From the NCBI GenBank assembly GCA_038861545.1, contig JAWCCZ010000002.1, positions 64,001 to 128,000 of the forward strand: a stretch of DNA of 64,000 nucleotides. Reading direction: 5' to 3'. Shown here piece after piece: positions 13,024-50,257 of this stretch; position 1 is the stretch's first letter, and each line of letters opens with the position of its first letter. Both the position numbers and the translations under genes were made by a program. The DNA is from Thermofilaceae archaeon (GTDB lineage Archaea > Thermoproteota > Thermoprotei > Thermofilales > Thermofilaceae). The notes below the pieces were generated by a model. That model was not told the origin of the DNA, searched no databases, and worked only from the letters and a program-made list of their open reading frames with translations.

Positions 13024-14253
13024 ATGAAAAAAGCATGGATTTCATGTATAGTATTAACGGTGCTCCTAGTAGTATTCTTGGTTCCATCAGCTAATACCCA
13101 GAAGAAAGTTAGAGTGGTTGTAGGTTTCGAAGATGAAAACGCGCTTGTTGAGATCTTAAACCTACCTGGTGCGGAAAAGGTTAAGATTATACCTGAAATT
13201 AAGGTAATGGTTCTATACCTCCCTGAAGGGATATTCAACAACTTCAGGAGGGGGAAGGGTTTAAGGTATATTGAAAATGATGGGATAGCATATACGCTGG
13301 AGTTTTCAAGCTCAGATATACTCTGGAACGTAAAAATGATTAACACAGATAAAGTTTGGAACACTTACTTTCCGCAGATGGGTTGGAGTGCTCTAGGGCG
13401 AGGAGTTGTAGTCGCCGTCTTGGATACAGGAGTTGACTATAATCACCCTGAGTTGAAATCGAGACTAGCCTGGTGTGCGTATACGCTCGGTACAAGGACC
13501 TATACTGGTACAAATCTAAAGAACTGTGCTGATGGAAATGGTCATGGGACTCATGTAACTGGGATTATCGCCTCCGCGATTAACGGTGTCGGTAACGCTG
13601 GTGTTGCCCCAAACGTAACCATATATGTAGTTAAGGTTCTAAGTAATTCGGGCTCCGGCACTTACAGTGATATCGCGGAAGGTATTATACTGGCTGTAAA
13701 GGGTCCAGACGGGATAGTTGGAACCAGCGACGATGCGAAAATTCTGAGCATGTCTCTAGGAGGGAGTAGCGACAACTCTGTGCTACGTGATGCTGTTTCA
13801 TGGGCTTACAGTAACGGTGCAGTTATAGTAGCCGCAGCTGGAAACTCTGGTGACGGCAATCCATCCACGAATAATGTAGCGTACCCAGCGAAGTATAGCC
13901 AGGTAATTGCTGTAGCCGCTGTAGACTCTAGCGGGAATGTGCCAAGCTGGAGCAGTGATGGAGTTGAGGTAGATGTGGCAGCTCCTGGGGTTAACATTTA
14001 TTCAACATATAAGAACTCGGGCTACGCTACAGCTTCAGGAACTAGCATGGCCACGCCGCATGTATCGGCAACTATTGCGTTAATCCAAGCATTAAGGTTA
14101 GCTCAAGGGAAAGCACCTTTTACTTTTAATCAAGTCTATGAGACTTTAACAAGGACAACAAAAGATGTGAGTAGCCCGGGATTCGATGTTTTCTCCGGCT
14201 ATGGACTCATTGACGGATTAGCTGCGATTGAATATGCTTTAAATCAGCCTTAA
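13024..14253 (+). CDS. Secreted subtilisin-like serine protease (S8) with propeptide
   Basis: Signal peptide; LDTGVD, HGTHVTG, AAAGNSG, GTSMATPH. Confidence 0.96.
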   Translation: MKKAWISCIVLTVLLVVFLVPSANTQKKVRVVVGFEDENALVEILNLPGAEKVKIIPEIKVMVLYLPEGIFNNFRRGKGLRYIENDGIAYTLEFSSSDILWNVKMINTDKVWNTYFPQMGWSALGRGVVVAVLDTGVDYNHPELKSRLAWCAYTLGTRTYTGTNLKNCADGNGHGTHVTGIIASAINGVGNAGVAPNVTIYVVKVLSNSGSGTYSDIAEGIILAVKGPDGIVGTSDDAKILSMSLGGSSDNSVLRDAVSWAYSNGAVIVAAAGNSGDGNPSTNNVAYPAKYSQVIAVAAVDSSGNVPSWSSDGVEVDVAAPGVNIYSTYKNSGYATASGTSMATPHVSATIALIQALRLAQGKAPFTFNQVYETLTRTTKDVSSPGFDVFSGYGLIDGLAAIEYALNQP

Positions 14254-14306
14254 AGAAGGACTTTCTCTTTACTTTCTTCTGGATTATTTTTCATAAGAGT
14301 TTTCAT

Positions 14307-15161
14307 TTATACATGGGCACGTACACCCGATAAAGCCCGTCCTACAGTTGATGGAGCGAATTTACGTGCCATGTGTTCTCCAATTACTAGTGCACGCACG
14401 AGAGCTTTTCCAAACTCTGTTAGTTCCACTCTCCGCTCTCGCCCCTCCTGAGCTTTCTCAATTAACCCCTCCTCCTCCATTTCCTTCAATAGTCTACTGT
14501 AGTACGCTTTCACAGCGGCATTATTCTCTGGGTCATCCCCGCATGCTCTGATGAGCTCCATCACGCTTCTCGCAGCTCCGTTCATTGAATAAAGAGTTAA
14601 GAGAGTTTTCAGCTTACGGCCTTCACTGTCAGTAGCCTGCACGGGGGGTAAGACCCTCTTTCGAGGCATCGCTAGGTTCGCGATAGTTTGCATACGTGCC
14701 GAGTCTTTCTGTTCCACCCAGTCGTCGAACTCAGGGGTTCTTGGATCGGGGATGAAATCCCCGCGGACGTCGGAGATAACCCCATAAACTTCCACATTCT
14801 CAAACATCATAGCAACTGCGCCGGCGGCTGCGGCCATGAGAGACGGCATATCGGTAACATCTATGTACACCTTTTGCGTTCTCTTGTATACCAACTCATG
14901 GTGCAGTATCGCGTAAAGCCTGCTGAAAACGCTTACAGTGCTGAGCGGATTAACGGGAAGTTTAACTGGTCTGAAGAAGGATAACTCTCTAGCCACCTTC
15001 CTTGCATTCCTCCTCGACACCACCTTGTAACGGTCTAGGGGGTCAGATTTACCGTCGTAGAGAAGGTAAACGCGGTCAACAGGTTCTCTACGTCTGATTT
15101 CGTCGAAGCCCTCTAGTATTAATGTCGGATGAAAGCCTACGTAGTGCACCGTGACGGCCAT
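14307..15161 (-). CDS. CARF-like (DUF6293/Csa3-like) + winged-HTH transcriptional regulator
   Basis: N-terminal VHYVGF...DRVYLL...VYIDVT Rossmann-like pattern; C-terminal YSRLLKEMEEEGLIEK...GRERRVELTEFG wHTH. Confidence 0.75.
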   Translation of the reverse strand: MAVTVHYVGFHPTLILEGFDEIRRREPVDRVYLLYDGKSDPLDRYKVVSRRNARKVARELSFFRPVKLPVNPLSTVSVFSRLYAILHHELVYKRTQKVYIDVTDMPSLMAAAAGAVAMMFENVEVYGVISDVRGDFIPDPRTPEFDDWVEQKDSARMQTIANLAMPRKRVLPPVQATDSEGRKLKTLLTLYSMNGAARSVMELIRACGDDPENNAAVKAYYSRLLKEMEEEGLIEKAQEGRERRVELTEFGKALVRALVIGEHMARKFAPSTVGRALSGVRAHV

Positions 15162-15185
15162 GACTTCCCGCCTTATTACGCGAAT

Positions 15186-15199
15186 TATACTACAGTATA
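15186..15199. promoter_or_regulatory. Palindrome between TATA box and start of the CARF-wHTH gene (candidate operator)
   Basis: TATACT-AC-AGTATA; TATA element at ~15217-15227. Confidence 0.35.
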
Positions 15200-15263
15200 C
15201 CTAGTTGTGTAACCAGTATATATATTTAGCTCAACATTTGCGGCTTAGCCGTAAACTGTACGC

Positions 15264-15313
15264 TTTTCATGTAACTATCCATCGGGATTTACTTCTGAAA
15301 AGTTGCATGAAAA
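15264..15313. promoter_or_regulatory. Inverted repeat in the divergent CARF/nurA promoter
   Basis: TTTTCATGTAACT (15264-15276) and AGTTGCATGAAAA (15301-15313), 12/13 complementary. Confidence 0.4.
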
Positions 15314-15418
15314 TGCTACTGTTCGCAATAACTGTAACCTTAGTAATGGTGGTGAAAACTTTTTCCTAATTGGTTACCATCTTTAACTTTTTAAGGTGAC
15401 TTCCGTAGATATAGTAGA

Positions 15419-16453
15419 ATGTATAGAAGCGAGTTATTTGCGAGCTTTGAGAAAGCAGATCTTGAAATACTCGTCCAAAGGCTGAAAAAATTATACGAGG
15501 AACGACGCCGGTATTCGCAGGCTTCCCTTGACGGTACGTTTCTCCTTAAACCAGTTCCTGTACTCAATCTCTTCGGCAGGACTGTAAGAGGAGTTCCCGT
15601 CGACGATTCGAGAATCAGAGTTCTCGAATCTATACCTCATGCAAAACTCACAGTTGCTGTAGACGCGAGCGCTAAGGTTCTCTTCAACCTGGGTTCCACC
15701 ATTATAGTAGAAAGCAAAGCTGTTACTCTAGCTTATAGGGGGTTCCGCAGAGTAGCGGAAATTCAATCGAAAAGGGTTTCTCTGGTCAGCAGTAAAGCGG
15801 AGGCTGCAGAATGGTTGCTGCGAGTTGAATACGAGGTCGCGTTAAGGGCTCTCAACAGCTTGGGCGGTAGTGGTTACCTACTTATGGATCGGAGCTTAAC
15901 GGTATCGCCGCTTTACAGGGCTACAACCAGAGAGCTCGTAGGAAGAGTTGAAAGGAGAGCTTTAGCAGCCGGGTTAGTTCCAGTTGGTTTACCTAAGCAC
16001 ACAAAGCTTGCCCTTGACACAGGAGAAAGCCTGCTCGGGTATATCGCAAGCTTAGCTGAGAAAAGGTTAAACAGCTCACCGTGGCTCTACTACCCGGTTT
16101 TCAGACTTGAAAGCCTCCCCCCTTGGATGCTAGGTGCCCCTGTGGTAGTAAAGTTCTCGGAGATTAGCGGAAATGTGCTACGCGTCGATATATCAAGGAA
16201 AGCTCTGGCTAGGTTCGACTACGATGGCCTACTGGGAGAACTGGCGTTCCTGCAAGATGTTTCCTCCCCCGGTTACCCCTATCCACTAAAAGCAGCACAT
16301 GAAGCCTCAAAAATCAGCGAGAGTGAAATAGAGTTAGATAGAATGGCTATTCTTGAAGCCTTAAGCTCACGAGGTATTAGGAATCGTCTACTCCTCGATT
16401 CCACAGCGAGTACGAGTTTTAAGGAGAAAAGCCTTTGGGGTGACACATTCTGA
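15419..16453 (+). CDS. nurA: NurA family nuclease
   Basis: AVDAS, MDRSL, C-terminal GYPYPLKAAHE motifs; coupled to herA. Confidence 0.85.
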   Translation: MYRSELFASFEKADLEILVQRLKKLYEERRRYSQASLDGTFLLKPVPVLNLFGRTVRGVPVDDSRIRVLESIPHAKLTVAVDASAKVLFNLGSTIIVESKAVTLAYRGFRRVAEIQSKRVSLVSSKAEAAEWLLRVEYEVALRALNSLGGSGYLLMDRSLTVSPLYRATTRELVGRVERRALAAGLVPVGLPKHTKLALDTGESLLGYIASLAEKRLNSSPWLYYPVFRLESLPPWMLGAPVVVKFSEISGNVLRVDISRKALARFDYDGLLGELAFLQDVSSPGYPYPLKAAHEASKISESEIELDRMAILEALSSRGIRNRLLLDSTASTSFKEKSLWGDTF

Positions 16454-18060
16454 AACTGGGCGTTATTACTTGGGTTGAAGGGACAACTGTAAAGTTTAGA
16501 ATACTCGAGGATGTCCGCGTAGAGAGGGGGCAGCTCGTAAAGGTGCATGACGGGGGTAGGAAGTACGTTATGAGGGTCTATGATTTTAGGCCGGAGAGCC
16601 TTTTAACACCGGCAGAGGTGGCAGCCGCGAGCCATGCCGCTGCGAGAGGAGGTAAAGTAGCGTTGTACGATGACAGCTTACGCCTATACGATACAGCTTT
16701 AGCAGCCATCCTTTGCCAAGTCGAGGAGGACGGTAAGGTGCAGGGCCCCACATCTGTACCACGGCTTTTCATGGATGTAGAATCGCTTGAGGGTGAAGAT
16801 CTCAAGCAGTTGCGTCTCGATACAGGGGATCTCGTTATCGGTTTGGTTCGGGTTGGACATAAGCCTTCAAATGCCATCGTAGCGTTAGATGGTTCGAGGG
16901 TTATACCCCATCACGTTCTTGTCTGTGGTGTTACGGGAGCCGGTAAGTCAAACCTTGGGAAAGTACTAGCGGCAGCGTTCATGTTAGCGCCAAGCGATTA
17001 CAGCCTAGTGCTCTTCGACTGCGAAAGTGAGTACCTTGCTGGCTCGGAGCCCGGCAAGTATGGTTTAGCGCACCTTCCTGTAGCTGAGGAGAAACTTTTT
17101 CTCGTAACTCCGAGAGTTGACGAGCCGACGAGAATGAGGTTAGAGCTAGAGCTGGCTGGCGAAATCGTTGAGAGGGAAGTCACTGCTCATCCGTTGAAAG
17201 TAGACCTATCGGCTCTTCACCCGTATGATTTCGCAATGACTGGAGAGTTTACAGAGCCTCAAGAGGAATTGCTCTGGCTTGCTTACAGAACTTTCGAAAG
17301 AGAATGGTTGGATATTTTAACCACGGTGGATTCGAGAAGTCTTCACAAACGGCTTGGAGGTATGGCCACAGTGAACACGATAGCTGTAACTAGGAGGAAG
17401 CTTCGCCACCTGCTAGGCGTAGATGGAATATTTGTGCCCGGCGCTCCCGGCGATCTCTTCAAAGCTGTGCTCGGAGCGGTCCAAAGCGGTAAGGTGGTTT
17501 TATTCGATATGCCATTCGCCGGTGAGGGGGAAGAGAAACTTTTGACAATAGCTGTAGCTAGAAGGCTGTTCCACGCGTACGAGAAAGCACGAAAATACTC
17601 ACCTGAGGAATGGGAACAGCTCCCCCACGTTTTAATAGCGGTGGAAGAAGCTCATAGGTACCTTTCCAAGCAAGCCGTAAGTGGCGGTGAGAACCGTGAG
17701 AATATTTTTACTGTGATCGCGAAAAGAGGGAGGAAGTATAAAGTTGGCGCACTTTATATAACTCAGATGCCAGGCGAGTTAATGGAAACCGTAATTCGAC
17801 AAGCACTTACGAAAATCATTTTACCATTACCGACAAAACCCGACCTAATCAAAGTCATTCAATACAGCCCATACTTAGATGAGGCTGAGCAGGAGATCCG
17901 CACACTTGATAGAGGAGAAGCGTTACTTGTATCACCCCCCAGCGGTATGAGGTTCGCTGTTCCCATAAAAGTGCTCAGCTATGAAGAACTTGTAGAAACA
18001 CTCGTCTCTAGCGAACCAGATAACGTGGGAACAGCAGCACGAGCAGTACACACAGTGTAA
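16450..18060 (+). CDS. herA: HerA-like FtsK/HerA ATPase with N-terminal HAS-barrel; probable CTG start
   Basis: GVTGAGKSN, FDCESEY, VEEAHRY, KRGRKY, TQMP, LDRGEALL; frame open from 16444 with HAS-barrel-like KLGVITWVEG...; ORF track starts at 16543. Confidence 0.88.
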   Translation: MKLGVITWVEGTTVKFRILEDVRVERGQLVKVHDGGRKYVMRVYDFRPESLLTPAEVAAASHAAARGGKVALYDDSLRLYDTALAAILCQVEEDGKVQGPTSVPRLFMDVESLEGEDLKQLRLDTGDLVIGLVRVGHKPSNAIVALDGSRVIPHHVLVCGVTGAGKSNLGKVLAAAFMLAPSDYSLVLFDCESEYLAGSEPGKYGLAHLPVAEEKLFLVTPRVDEPTRMRLELELAGEIVEREVTAHPLKVDLSALHPYDFAMTGEFTEPQEELLWLAYRTFEREWLDILTTVDSRSLHKRLGGMATVNTIAVTRRKLRHLLGVDGIFVPGAPGDLFKAVLGAVQSGKVVLFDMPFAGEGEEKLLTIAVARRLFHAYEKARKYSPEEWEQLPHVLIAVEEAHRYLSKQAVSGGENRENIFTVIAKRGRKYKVGALYITQMPGELMETVIRQALTKIILPLPTKPDLIKVIQYSPYLDEAEQEIRTLDRGEALLVSPPSGMRFAVPIKVLSYEELVETLVSSEPDNVGTAARAVHTV

Positions 18061-18177
18061 GTGGTTAACTTGTCGACAGGCAATTAAGCTGTAAAGCCGT
18101 TTTCCAAACTTAACTTTGTTCTTCAGACTTGAACGTGAACTTATGGGAACCTTTTAGCTTACGGTAAGTGTTCTCAA

Positions 18178-19404
18178 CTAATCCCCTTTAGAGTACACGG
18201 TTCTTGTTTCACGAGTAGTGGCGACATAAACGCTATCAACTTTAAGTAGTAGTATAATCATTACTGTCCTCATTGCCGCGGAAAGCGCTAAACCATATCT
18301 TACCCCCTCCCAGCCAGCATTTTCGATGATTCGATCTGTTACCACGCCGCCAACTGCTGAGCCTAGGGAAGCCGCGACACCTTGAAGCAGGTTTAGATAA
18401 GCCAAATAACTGGCTTTATGCTCCGGATCGGCAAGCTCCATAGCGTATAAGGGGATAGCCACCATACCCATAGCGGAGAAGGGGCCGGAGAAAAACTGCC
18501 AAAGGTAGATAGGTAGGGGATGATGCGCCACCGCATACACTGTTGGAAACATTACGAGCCCTATTCTGCTGATTACTATGAGCTTCTTAAGATCACGACC
18601 GCCTATTCTTTTACCTATTACGTATTGTGATGCTACAGTGGAAGAGGTTGAAAGCACGTTGAGAACCGCTAAATCTTTTACACTCATGTCTAAGACATAG
18701 CTTTGAGCGAGGGGAAAGAGAGGCCAAGCTACAGCCATTGCGAAAGTGTAAGCTGAGTTAGCAACTGTAAACTTGATGAAACTCTTGTCTTGTAAGATGA
18801 TAGGGCTTGGACGGTGAGTAGCCGATACTGTATGCCTTTTCTCATCAAGGTTCAACATTGCTAGCCATGTAACAGACGAACCTAAGCTGATTAAACCCGA
18901 AATCATGAAAAAAATTCTCATATCCTCTACGCTAGGGTTTAAGTAAAGCATAATAGCGAAAACTGGAAGAGCGCAAAGCTGAGCTGCGGCGTTCAAATAG
19001 CTGAGAACCTTCCCCCTTTCTTCTCCAAGGAAGAGGGTTCCTACAAGGGCCGTCAGCGCTAAGCCAGCGACTCCGACTACTACTGCTCTCGCGGTTATCA
19101 AAGTAACGAGTAGTAACGGGTCGAGAGTCAATGAGACCGCAATCCATAGTAGAGAAGCCGCAAACGAGGAAATCAAGAGAAATTTTACATGTTTTCCCGA
19201 GCGATCCAGCCAAGAACCAGCAATCACCTGCGTAACCGTGGGCAGTGAATTCACAGACATCTGAAGGATACCTTGCAGTGTCCCGGAGCCACTTAAGGAC
19301 GCGAAGTAATAGCCTATGTAGGGTGCTGATAAGTTATCCGCAAGTGAAACCAGTGATTGCCTAATTAAAAGCACCTGCTTTGTACCACGCTTATCTTCAC
19401 CCAC
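18178..19404 (-). CDS. MFS transporter
   Basis: About 12 hydrophobic segments; GSWLDRSGK motif A. Confidence 0.85.
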   Translation of the reverse strand: MGEDKRGTKQVLLIRQSLVSLADNLSAPYIGYYFASLSGSGTLQGILQMSVNSLPTVTQVIAGSWLDRSGKHVKFLLISSFAASLLWIAVSLTLDPLLLVTLITARAVVVGVAGLALTALVGTLFLGEERGKVLSYLNAAAQLCALPVFAIMLYLNPSVEDMRIFFMISGLISLGSSVTWLAMLNLDEKRHTVSATHRPSPIILQDKSFIKFTVANSAYTFAMAVAWPLFPLAQSYVLDMSVKDLAVLNVLSTSSTVASQYVIGKRIGGRDLKKLIVISRIGLVMFPTVYAVAHHPLPIYLWQFFSGPFSAMGMVAIPLYAMELADPEHKASYLAYLNLLQGVAASLGSAVGGVVTDRIIENAGWEGVRYGLALSAAMRTVMIILLLKVDSVYVATTRETRTVYSKGD

Positions 19405-49688: not shown

Positions 49689-50257
49689 ATGGAGGTTTAA
49701 CGCTGAGCCATCGGTGAAGGAAAAGACTATTTTATTCTAAATTATTGCAGAGAAGATTAGAAAGAACAGTATCTCAAACAGAAGTTTACTGTAAGATACG
49801 AGTACCGTAACAACTTCTACAACAAATAATACCATCGCATGGAAATGCCTAAACTGATAGGGGCACTGAACAAAACTATGGAGTGAGTTCAACTGTATTT
49901 ACGCTCATGCGTAAATACCGGGTTGAGGAGAATTTTCTCCACTACAGGCATCATTCTACTAGCGTAAGTTGTTTGAGTCAAGTCGCTATGACTCTAAAGT
50001 ATATTATTGTACATGATTTCTACTATGCTGCGAACAACGACCCCGAAAATATTAGTTAGGAGCTTCTCTAAATCCAAACCTTAAGGTTTAGTTTTAATGC
50101 ATTTAGCTAAAGCACTTATATATGCGAAGTTTGAAGAAACTGTAAAAGACATAATTTGACCTTACCTTTTTCATGAACAACCTTCTCATTAGTTAAATTG
50201 GAACCTTTTATCATAATATTTTTTATTTTCATAGTATATTTTTAAGTATGAGGCACC

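Follow-up and report, generated by a model that had tools for sequence, protein, structure and literature searches.

Antiviral signalling is the setting in which CARF domains are best known, and pairs of HerA with an effector protein are known defence systems. To our knowledge, the signal is known for few of the CARF sensors found outside CRISPR loci and not for most of them, and no general DNA-damage regulator is known in Archaea. Among described regulators, Csa3a and Csa3b of Saccharolobus/Sulfolobus (2wte, 6w11, 6wxq) come closest to the protein analysed here. In S. islandicus, Csa3a binds the promoters of both nurA-mre11-rad50-herA and a stand-alone nurA-herA pair in EMSA (PMC5587795), and overexpression of Csa3b raises expression of the nurA-mre11-rad50-herA repair operon (PMC7480081). 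A second relative, HFX_2341 of Haloferax mediterranei (PMC11434293), is a Csa3-like, vertically inherited transcription factor without linkage to CRISPR; it is reported to repress transport and metabolism genes globally, and no nurA-herA partner has been described for it.

In this study, we analysed a 64,000-nt window from a Thermofilaceae archaeon (GCA_038861545.1, contig JAWCCZ010000002.1, forward strand 64,001-128,000; window coordinates are used throughout), in which a 284-aa CARF plus winged-helix (wHTH) regulator on the minus strand is separated by a 257-bp control region from a nurA-herA operon at 15419-18060 (Table 1). All three genes lie where a preliminary description of this DNA had placed them, and we did not find the trio described as one unit in any paper. 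Canonical HerA-NurA (S. solfataricus 4d2i, 2ygk), the best PDB sequence match of the trio, has the same two families and catalytic motifs and the same adjacency and coupling of nurA and herA; however, the canonical operon includes mre11-rad50, whereas the trio lacks both and has its own regulator instead. Anti-phage Sir2-HerA and DUF4297-HerA and the type III CRISPR-associated HerA/NurA of Thermoproteales likewise combine a HerA-family ATPase with a nuclease-type effector, with weak profile matches to the trio, but the partner in the trio is a bona fide NurA, its neighbourhood holds no defence or cas genes, and it is core and vertically inherited rather than patchy. We consider it fairly probable that the trio is a ligand-gated, vertically inherited cassette that inducibly processes ends of the host's own DNA in the course of repair, recombination or fork rescue.

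Table 1. Features of the regulator-nurA-herA locus in window coordinates
Feature	Position	Strand	Details and basis
Regulator gene, Csa3-like CARF + winged-helix transcription factor (DUF6293/HFX_2341 family)	14307..15161	-	284 aa; profiles, model, Foldseek
Segment inside regulator gene	14358..14630	-	profile match, alignment, model
CARF (Rossmann-like) sensor domain, predicted	14667..15161	-	residues ~1-165; model secondary structure, Foldseek, alignment
Divergent control region	15162..15418		257 bp; loci compared
WACNGTW site 1 (TACAGTA)	15191..15197		motif count
TATA-like box TATATATATTTA	15217..15228		conserved as AGTATATATA in Thermofilaceae; read from sequence
Left 22-bp element, begins with WACNGTW site 2	15254..15275	+	20.7 bits, second in genome
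Right 22-bp element, inverted copy of left, WACNGTW site 3 at end	15302..15323	-	28.9 bits, first in genome
WACNGTW site 4 (AACTGTA)	15330..15336		motif count
TATA-like box CTTTTTAAGG	15387..15396	+	23-32 nt upstream of nurA ATG; read from sequence
nurA paralogue	15419..16453	+	344 aa; D82, E137, D157, H294 intact
herA paralogue	16450..18060	+	536 aa counted from proposed CTG; barrel-like N-terminal segment, Walker A GVTGAGKS, Walker B VEEAH

The nurA-herA pair and its paralogues

Both enzymes exceed the cut-offs of their Pfam families (NurA, 28.4 bits against 21; DUF87 for HerA, 47.2 bits against 23.2). The four acidic and histidine residues of NurA are invariant across 17 orthologues, the blocks around D157 and H294 aligning with the GDYILMDGSL and GYPFPLLKAH blocks of S. 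solfataricus NurA 2ygk, and with both Walker motifs of HerA in place the catalytic motifs are intact, as had been claimed. HerA scores 55 and 53 bits against the repair equivalogs NF040937 and NF040819 (cut-offs 800 and 970) and 54 and 52 bits against the anti-phage models NF042943 and NF042944 (cut-offs 800 and 850), and its top PADLOC HerA profile match has an E-value of 5.8e-24. We rejected its assignment to the canonical HerA of double-strand-break repair, given these scores, its separate clade and the presence of the canonical mre11-rad50-linked operon elsewhere in relatives, and equally its assignment to an anti-phage HerA system of the Sir2-HerA or DUF4297-HerA type, given scores under the cut-offs, a NurA partner and a core, single-copy cassette.

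The pair is not alone in its genome, as a second herA/nurA pair lies at G000 C1:452716-455611, and complete Thermofilum genomes have three herA genes: one in the nurA-herA-mre11-rad50 operon, one in a stand-alone second pair and one in the trio. The trio HerA shares 27-29 % identity with its two paralogues (27 % with the canonical HerA encoded in the same genome) and forms a separate, long-stemmed clade (SH-aLRT 100), away from the housekeeping orthologues. Splits within its tree follow taxa, and for the same pairs of genomes its identities against those of canonical HerA are 75 vs 72, 56 vs 54 and 58 vs 56 %; judged by these values, the trio HerA evolves as slowly as the canonical one.

The herA reading frame as originally listed, with a GTG start at 16543, omits 31 N-terminal residues (LKLGVITWVEG...) that are conserved in every orthologue and encoded in an open frame reaching back to 16444; the conservation of the barrel-like segment lies only upstream of that GTG. 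Most orthologues have a TTG or ATG start here, with a 4-nt overlap between the two genes at the nurA stop in 7 of 16, and in the window and the nearest genera a CTG (16450-16452) overlaps the nurA TGA (16451-16453) as CTGA. The true start is thus probably the CTG at 16450, not the GTG, and the translational coupling of nurA to herA proposed earlier stands only with this non-canonical start or with ribosome re-initiation there.

The CARF regulator and its predicted ligand pocket

The regulator reaches the Pfam cut-off for the DUF6293_C winged helix (27.7 bits, cut-off 27) and narrowly misses that for HFX_2341_N (27.0 bits, cut-off 30); PF19810 and/or PF22665 are precomputed for most of its orthologues, which NCBI names as DUF6293 or HFX_2341 family, the family names that it shares with HFX_2341 itself, and PADLOC CARF3 profiles span the entire protein (E 5e-11). 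Its AF2 model (pLDDT 88.9, pTM 0.82) retrieved CARF proteins as all of the first 50 Foldseek matches in the PDB, with a lowest E of 1.7e-8 and with Csa3 (2wte/6wxq/6w11), Sis0811, SSO1393, Csx1, Csm6 and Card1 as the best. The modelled N-terminal domain is therefore a CARF fold, Rossmann-like with a parallel sheet, bearing out its earlier description as CARF-like, and together with the C-terminal MarR-like wHTH it gives the architecture and fold of the Csa3 family, although structural alignments with Csa3a and Csa3b show only 14-15 % identity. A homodimer was also predicted, with an ipSAE of 0.80 against 0.00 for the best control, a mark that 20 of 30 proteins with structures solved as one-chain pairs attained, as did 1 of 23 solved as single chains; this is a model only, and since similar complexes, the Csa3 dimers, are already solved, the high score may merely echo those known structures. 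Contact agreement between runs was at least 64 % and partner pLDDT at least 74, and the modelled interface comprises residues 102-119 and 125-129; this is the helix through which CARF proteins typically dimerise, Csa3a and Csa3b included.

Six residues (G9, D36, K38, N71, D101 and T103) are invariant and, by alignment and model, lie where the parallel strands end on their C-terminal side, the region that receives the ligand in CARF proteins. The Gly9-Phe10 loop, corresponding to the Gly-Phe of the cA4-binding motif 1 of Csa3, is retained. The TDMP loop noted before is indeed present between beta4 and alpha4 (T103-D-M-P106), sited on the predicted dimer axis, and reads IDVTDMPS in Thermofilales and IDATSTTK in Methanomethylicia. 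In Csa3a, cA4 phosphate is clamped by Gly96-Met97-Arg98 within motif 2, Leu-x2-Gly-h-Arg (PMC8699464); in the alignment this motif is missing from the regulator and its orthologues. Because Asp-Met-Pro replaces the Gly-Met-Arg clamp, the ligand is probably not cA4, in line with the doubt that had been raised about cA4.

These features bear in opposite directions on the idea of an antiviral or anti-plasmid module, in which a nucleotide alarm (type III cOA or another cyclic nucleotide) acting through the CARF domain would set NurA-HerA to degrade invading DNA. The CARF fold, with cOA receptors as its closest structures, speaks for it, as do HerA scores that are about the same against anti-phage and repair models and the PADLOC HerA match, but the change of the cA4 clamp from Gly-x-Arg to Asp-x-Pro speaks against it.

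The divergent control region

The control region measures 238-273 bp in 16 of 17 loci and 370 bp in the remaining one. Of its two TATA-like boxes, TATATATATTTA is the probable promoter of the regulator gene, as read from sequence, and CTTTTTAAGG, whose counterpart in Thermofilum loci is TTATAAAAAG, lies so close to the nurA ATG that the nurA-herA mRNA would be leaderless or near-leaderless. Across 17 intergenic regions we counted 37 WACNGTW motifs, at conserved positions, against 8.0 +/- 2.9 (maximum 17) in 500 dinucleotide shuffles. In a genome-wide scan with a matrix built without the window sequence, the two 22-bp elements ranked first and second, the third match scoring 17.9 bits, and no further copy of the element was found elsewhere in the source genome. 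These putative sites differ from the Csa3a palindrome TCCCN8GGGA; they could also be targets of another factor or promoter elements, and the inverted 22-bp elements, if transcribed, could form an RNA hairpin.

We propose that a homodimeric Csa3-like regulator binds the WACNGTW-type array of this region, including both 22-bp elements, and would thereby control its own gene and the coupled nurA-herA, by activation or repression. The operon product would be a NurA nuclease riding a HerA translocase, which makes it the third and a divergent version of the machine that resects DNA ends in archaea. When the CARF pocket on the two-fold axis senses a small ligand or a damage-related signal, DNA binding would change, and this would set the amount of NurA-HerA. 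Csa3a targets nurA-herA promoters too, but Csa3 governs a regulon in trans, whereas the regulator would act in cis on a single dedicated operon.

It has been proposed for Sulfolobus Csa3a that raised NurA-HerA supplies prespacer substrates to Cas1-Cas2, and Csa3a does activate adaptation genes and nurA-herA jointly, binding both promoters (PMC5587795). A corresponding role as CRISPR adaptation helper is very unlikely for the trio: the neighbouring cas genes or CRISPR arrays expected of a Csa3 family member are absent, no cas gene being linked to the trio at the ~60 loci examined; the 22-bp element is confined to this locus in the genome and is therefore not shared with any CRISPR leader or cas promoter; and the same family occurs in CRISPR-free haloarchaeal species (PMC11434293). 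It is similarly improbable that nurA-herA is a constitutive housekeeping pair beside a regulator that serves other targets, their adjacency being historical. The family founder HFX_2341, which represses transport and metabolism genes globally (PMC11434293), and the regulator homologues of Nezhaarchaeales, which stand alone, would fit such an arrangement, but the head-to-head layout and spacer length are kept across classes while the remaining neighbours change, and the promoter region that the genes share is filled with conserved sites that occur only there.

Distribution and proposed role

The trio arrangement was unchanged at every complete locus of the ~60 examined in Thermofilales and Methanomethylicia, being identical in 17 loci and in all 38 genome_contigs loci uncut by a contig end, so the regulator link persists wherever the DNA is complete. 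No fourth conserved gene adjoins it at these loci. The earlier notion of a three-gene module holds, and none of the findings named beforehand as speaking against it was obtained. It is present, always as a single copy, in 35 of 41 Thermofilales genomes. In a same-genus genome (G001, 91 % complete) the regulator, nurA and herA of the trio were all unmatched, thus the cassette is either dispensable or was missed there. The trio is flanked by subtilase, nitrilase, MFS transporter and GT2 glycosyltransferase genes, a metabolic neighbourhood; no defence island was found in the window flanks or among neighbours at ~60 loci, and the 64-kb window contains no match to mre11, rad50 or Cmr2-type cas10, in agreement with the preliminary description.

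Given the best-known settings of CARF domains and of HerA-effector pairs, the antiviral module retains some plausibility, and the source genome does encode a Cmr2-type Cas10, while type III CRISPR co-evolves with HerA/NurA pairs in other Thermoproteota (PMC6546367). We nevertheless regard it as unlikely. The trio is near-universal in the order with a tree that matches taxonomy, changes as slowly as canonical HerA, has metabolic neighbours, is carried by 98-99 % complete genomes without any Cmr2 or Csm1 match, and has regulator relatives beside ssb, ligase, fen1 and nucS. On these grounds the defence half of the suggested "DNA-processing or defence" system is not supported; that a nucleotide or damage signal switches the module on is an inference.

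The distant regulator homologues are a small sample, given as raw counts (n=9). An ssb-like gene immediately precedes the homologue in 4 of the 9, and of these four homologues one is followed by nucS and another by DNA ligase; one homologue is divergent from fen1-ligase, and topoisomerase VI lies near two, one of which has an ssb-like gene 1.3 kb upstream. It is in Bathyarchaeia that the homologues adjoin ssb, DNA ligase, fen1 or nucS. A broader reading, which we regard as doubtful, is that the DUF6293 CARF-wHTH branch is a small-molecule-run sensor of the DNA-damage or replication-stress response in TACK archaea, with an SOS-like role wired per lineage to different repair genes. If true, its output would be NurA-HerA in Thermofilales and Methanomethylicia, whereas in Bathyarchaeia it would be either fen1-ligase or ssb combined with ligase or nucS; the ligand would then be a product of damage or else a new second messenger unconnected with CRISPR.

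As a DNA-end-processing cassette, the trio would hard-wire a link seen only in trans in Sulfolobus, that of Csa3a to nurA-herA. It combines a single regulator and a single enzyme pair with one promoter region whose candidate sites are clear, and cultured Thermofilum carries it too. Three questions thereby become directly testable: the signal of a CRISPR-free CARF domain, the reason why three NurA-HerA machines are retained in some archaea, and the possible control of ssb, ligase and fen1 by this regulator family in lineages beyond those with the trio.

The nurA-herA pair of the trio and its paralogues

The three open reading frames (ORFs) of the trio, namely the CARF and winged-helix regulator and the nurA-herA operon head-to-head with it, lie where the preliminary description had placed them, with the start of herA corrected (see table). 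The genome of the window (G000; 1.63 Mb, 12 contigs, 92 % complete; the window is C2:64001-128000) also encodes a second pair on contig C1, with metabolic genes on both sides, thus the herA and nurA of the trio are not sole copies. Complete Thermofilum genomes carry three herA genes each: the first lies within a nurA-herA-mre11-rad50 operon whose Mre11 and Rad50 were confirmed by NCBIfam, the second is an orthologue of the C1 copy (51 % identical), and the third is the trio copy. Pairwise identity among these three HerA paralogues is 27-29 %. A maximum-likelihood tree was built from 56 HerAs. In it the trio HerA stood apart from housekeeping orthologues, in a clade of its own with a long stem (100 % SH-aLRT); neither the phylum's canonical HerAs nor the second pair fall in this clade, and Thermofilales and Methanomethylicia-type sequences split within it. 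Long branches meet at the base of this tree, therefore we claim the separateness of the clade and not the order of clades. The trio nurA-herA is a third paralogue and not the housekeeping pair.

Features of the trio, its control region and related loci (window positions unless a contig is named)
Feature	Position	Strand	Remark
Regulator	14307-15161	-	284 aa
22-bp element	15254-15275		headed by a WACNGTW site; inverted relative to the next element
22-bp element	15302-15323		headed by a WACNGTW site; inverted relative to the preceding element
nurA	15419-16453	+	over Pfam NurA threshold
Second nurA-herA pair	C1:452716-455611 (L008 7717-10612)	-	400 + 562 aa
Crenactin and arcadin-4 genes	C1:3800-8428 (L018)		280-aa ORF in between
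WACNGTW cluster	49765-49897		735-bp spacer; no 22-bp element

The C1 pair was considered as the housekeeping copy and dropped, since its orthologue in Thermofilum is a stand-alone pair present there alongside the canonical operon. With the NurA, HerA, Mre11 and Rad50 of a relative (G006) as tblastn queries, no orthologue of canonical herA, nurA, mre11 or rad50 was found in G000, and a Rad50 zinc-hook search of this genome gave no match. The best AAA_23 match in G000 was tried as Rad50 and proved to be arcadin-4 adjoining crenactin instead (285 and 573 bits, respectively); since no other G000 gene matches Rad50 better, the arcadin-4 gene is at risk of being miscalled as Rad50. The crenactin/arcadin-4 pair agrees with a placement of G000 among Thermofilaceae. 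That G000 has lost the canonical operon was rejected as a conclusion, since a search for Mre11 in 40 relatives found it in 34 and the assembly is 92 % complete; given the distribution of Mre11, an assembly gap is as likely as loss. The same-genus genome G001, one of the relatives with Mre11, has no trio genes, and the pattern in the two genomes reflects either assembly gaps in both or complementary losses.

The window NurA aligns with the active-site blocks of Sulfolobus solfataricus NurA, and D82, E137, D157 and H294 are retained in 17/17 orthologues. The window HerA is over the DUF87 threshold, with Walker A (GVTGAGKS) and Walker B (VEEAH) motifs. The herA ORF as listed begins at GTG 16543, and the same frame is open from 16444. 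Upstream of this GTG the frame encodes LKLGVITWVEGTTVKFRI..., a segment conserved across all orthologues from query residue 2-3 on. Most herA orthologues have TTG or ATG precisely at LK(L/V)G, and in 7/16 the start overlaps the nurA stop by 4 bases. In the window and the two nearest genera this position is occupied by CTG (16450-16452 in the window), which overlaps the nurA TGA (16451-16453) as CTGA. Thus the window herA would have either a CTG start or re-initiation at this CTG, and the proposed translational coupling of nurA and herA holds only in these cases. An ORF caller that requires ATG, GTG or TTG cuts 31 conserved residues off the window HerA (16444-16545).

Conservation of the trio and its control region

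Of the 41 genomes of the order, 35-36 carry one copy each of the regulator, NurA and HerA; these genomes span 8 families, and the three genes are always adjacent. Trio genes were found in about 20 of 301 sampled genomes of the phylum. In this sample the regulator and HerA occur together, and the Thermoproteaceae and the majority of the other families gave no match to either. Synteny of the triad was upheld in 17/17 fetched loci, all with the regulator on the strand opposite to nurA-herA. A scan by HerA alignment, with one genome per species, added 44 loci (HerA 48-83 % identical) in Thermofilum, Infirmifilum, Thermofilaceae MAGs, Methanomethylicia, Culexmicrobium and Nezhaarchaeales; regulator and NurA were in place in all 38 loci uncut by a contig end. 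Comparison of neighbourhoods across trio loci revealed no conserved gene beyond the three members. In the same genome pairs, identities of trio versus canonical HerA were 75 vs 72, 56 vs 54 and 58 vs 56 %, and by this measure conservation of the trio HerA is on a par with that of the canonical one. These results support the reading of the three genes as one module; the literature searched yielded no paper that treats the trio as a unit.

Several loci deserve separate mention. A 3-kb contig labelled Candidatus Aenigmatarchaeota (L065, JAGGZO010000048.1) encodes a HerA 62 % identical to that of the window, with NurA upstream, and is probably a mis-binned Thermofilales contig. Three Nezhaarchaeales genomes (G229, G195 and G222; L054-L056) carry regulator homologues of 32 % identity without nurA-herA, and in the single Nezhaarchaeales context examined (L151) the neighbours of the homologue are a further HTH regulator, NAD synthase and a translin-like gene.

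The spacer between regulator and nurA measures 238-273 bp in 16/17 loci. These spacers contain 37 WACNGTW sites; 500 dinucleotide shuffles gave 8.0 +/- 2.9, with no shuffle above 17. In Thermofilaceae the sites lie at fixed distances of about 28, 68, 88, 153 and 168 from the regulator start. When G000 was scored with a matrix derived from five other species, the two 22-bp elements of the window ranked first and second genome-wide (28.9 and 20.7 bits; next match 17.9). An Rfam scan of 14000-18500 gave no match at E <= 1, therefore the inverted elements are unexplained by any known RNA family. The pattern of WACNGTW sites and 22-bp elements is the footprint that would be expected of a dedicated, auto-regulated divergent promoter, and we infer that the regulator binds there.

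At least four WACNGTW sites within 180 bp were found at seven places in G000, five of them inside genes. The sole other intergenic cluster lies in the spacer from which a GH99-like and a GH123 glycoside hydrolase gene of the window diverge, lacks the 22-bp element, and is probably due to chance or another factor; a wider WACNGTW regulon is not claimed.

The regulator and its sensor pocket

The regulator matches the C-terminal winged helix of DUF6293 at 27.7 bits (cut-off 27) and HFX_2341_N at 27.0 bits, slightly under the cut-off of 30; its orthologues are named DUF6293 or HFX_2341 family by NCBI, and the CARF3 profiles of PADLOC match it over its full length (E 5e-11). An AlphaFold2 model built from an alignment of 18 orthologues (pLDDT 88.9, pTM 0.82) consists of an N-terminal domain of beta-alpha-beta type and, after it, a winged helix. 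The proposed CARF-like nature of the former was borne out by Foldseek, whose top PDB matches were all CARF proteins: Csa3 (2wte, 6wxq, 6w11), Sis0811, SSO1393, Csx1, Csm6, Card1, Cad1 and Cam1. The two-copy model reached an ipSAE of 0.80 versus 0.00 for the best control, a value reached by 20/30 proteins solved as one-chain pairs and 1/23 solved as single chains; since solved Csa3 dimers exist, this score is a measure of likeness and not proof of binding. Contact agreement between runs was at least 64 % and partner pLDDT at least 74, and residues 102-119 and 125-129 lie on the two-fold axis of the model.

In Csa3a, cA4 is bound by motif 1, Thr-h-Gly-Phe (Gly9-Phe10), and motif 2, Leu-x2-Gly-h-Arg (Gly96-Met97-Arg98) (PMC8699464). 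Gly9-Phe10 is retained in the window regulator, whereas the motif-2 loop reads Asp104-Met105-Pro106 there and Ser-Thr-Thr-Lys in Methanomethylicia orthologues. The alignment and model place five invariant polar residues (D36, K38, N71, D101 and T103) at strand ends, facing the pocket. In the modelled regulator a ligand site seems to be maintained and the cA4 clamp not. A Cmr2-type Cas10 was found in 12/41 genomes searched, including G000. Two trio-bearing genomes that are 98-99 % complete (G026 and G030) gave no match to Cmr2 or Csm1, and two complete Thermofilum genomes without Cmr2 gave weak Csm1 matches.

Gene neighbourhoods and the role of the module

It had been proposed that the trio serves in DNA processing or defence; the module itself stood, with defence as the weaker alternative. 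Other Thermoproteota are known to carry HerA/NurA pairs with a link to type III CRISPR (PMC6546367). The closest solved structure to the window HerA is S. solfataricus HerA at 90.5 bits, versus 45-77 bits for defence-type HerAs. Two S. islandicus operons, nurA-mre11-rad50-herA and a stand-alone nurA-herA, have promoters to which Csa3a binds (PMC5587795), and overexpression of Csa3b raises expression of the repair operon (PMC7480081). HFX_2341 of Haloferax is a Csa3-like global repressor that is vertically inherited (PMC11434293).

The contig neighbourhoods of nine distant regulator homologues (28-34 % identity, mostly from Bathyarchaeia) were examined. Four, all on Bathyarchaeia contigs (L147, L150, L154 and L156), come immediately after an ssb-like OB-fold gene, with gaps of 3-40 nt, one of them with nucS next and radA, cdc6 and polB nearby, and another with DNA ligase next. 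A fifth (L148) is divergent, head-to-head with fen1-ligase, and two are near topoisomerase VI, one of these with an ssb-like gene 1.3 kb upstream; the remaining two have no obvious DNA-metabolism neighbour. These ssb, ligase and fen1 contexts are new here; they point in the same direction as the trio and, in a small and uncontrolled sample of nine, suggest a tie between this branch of the regulator family and genes of DNA replication and repair.
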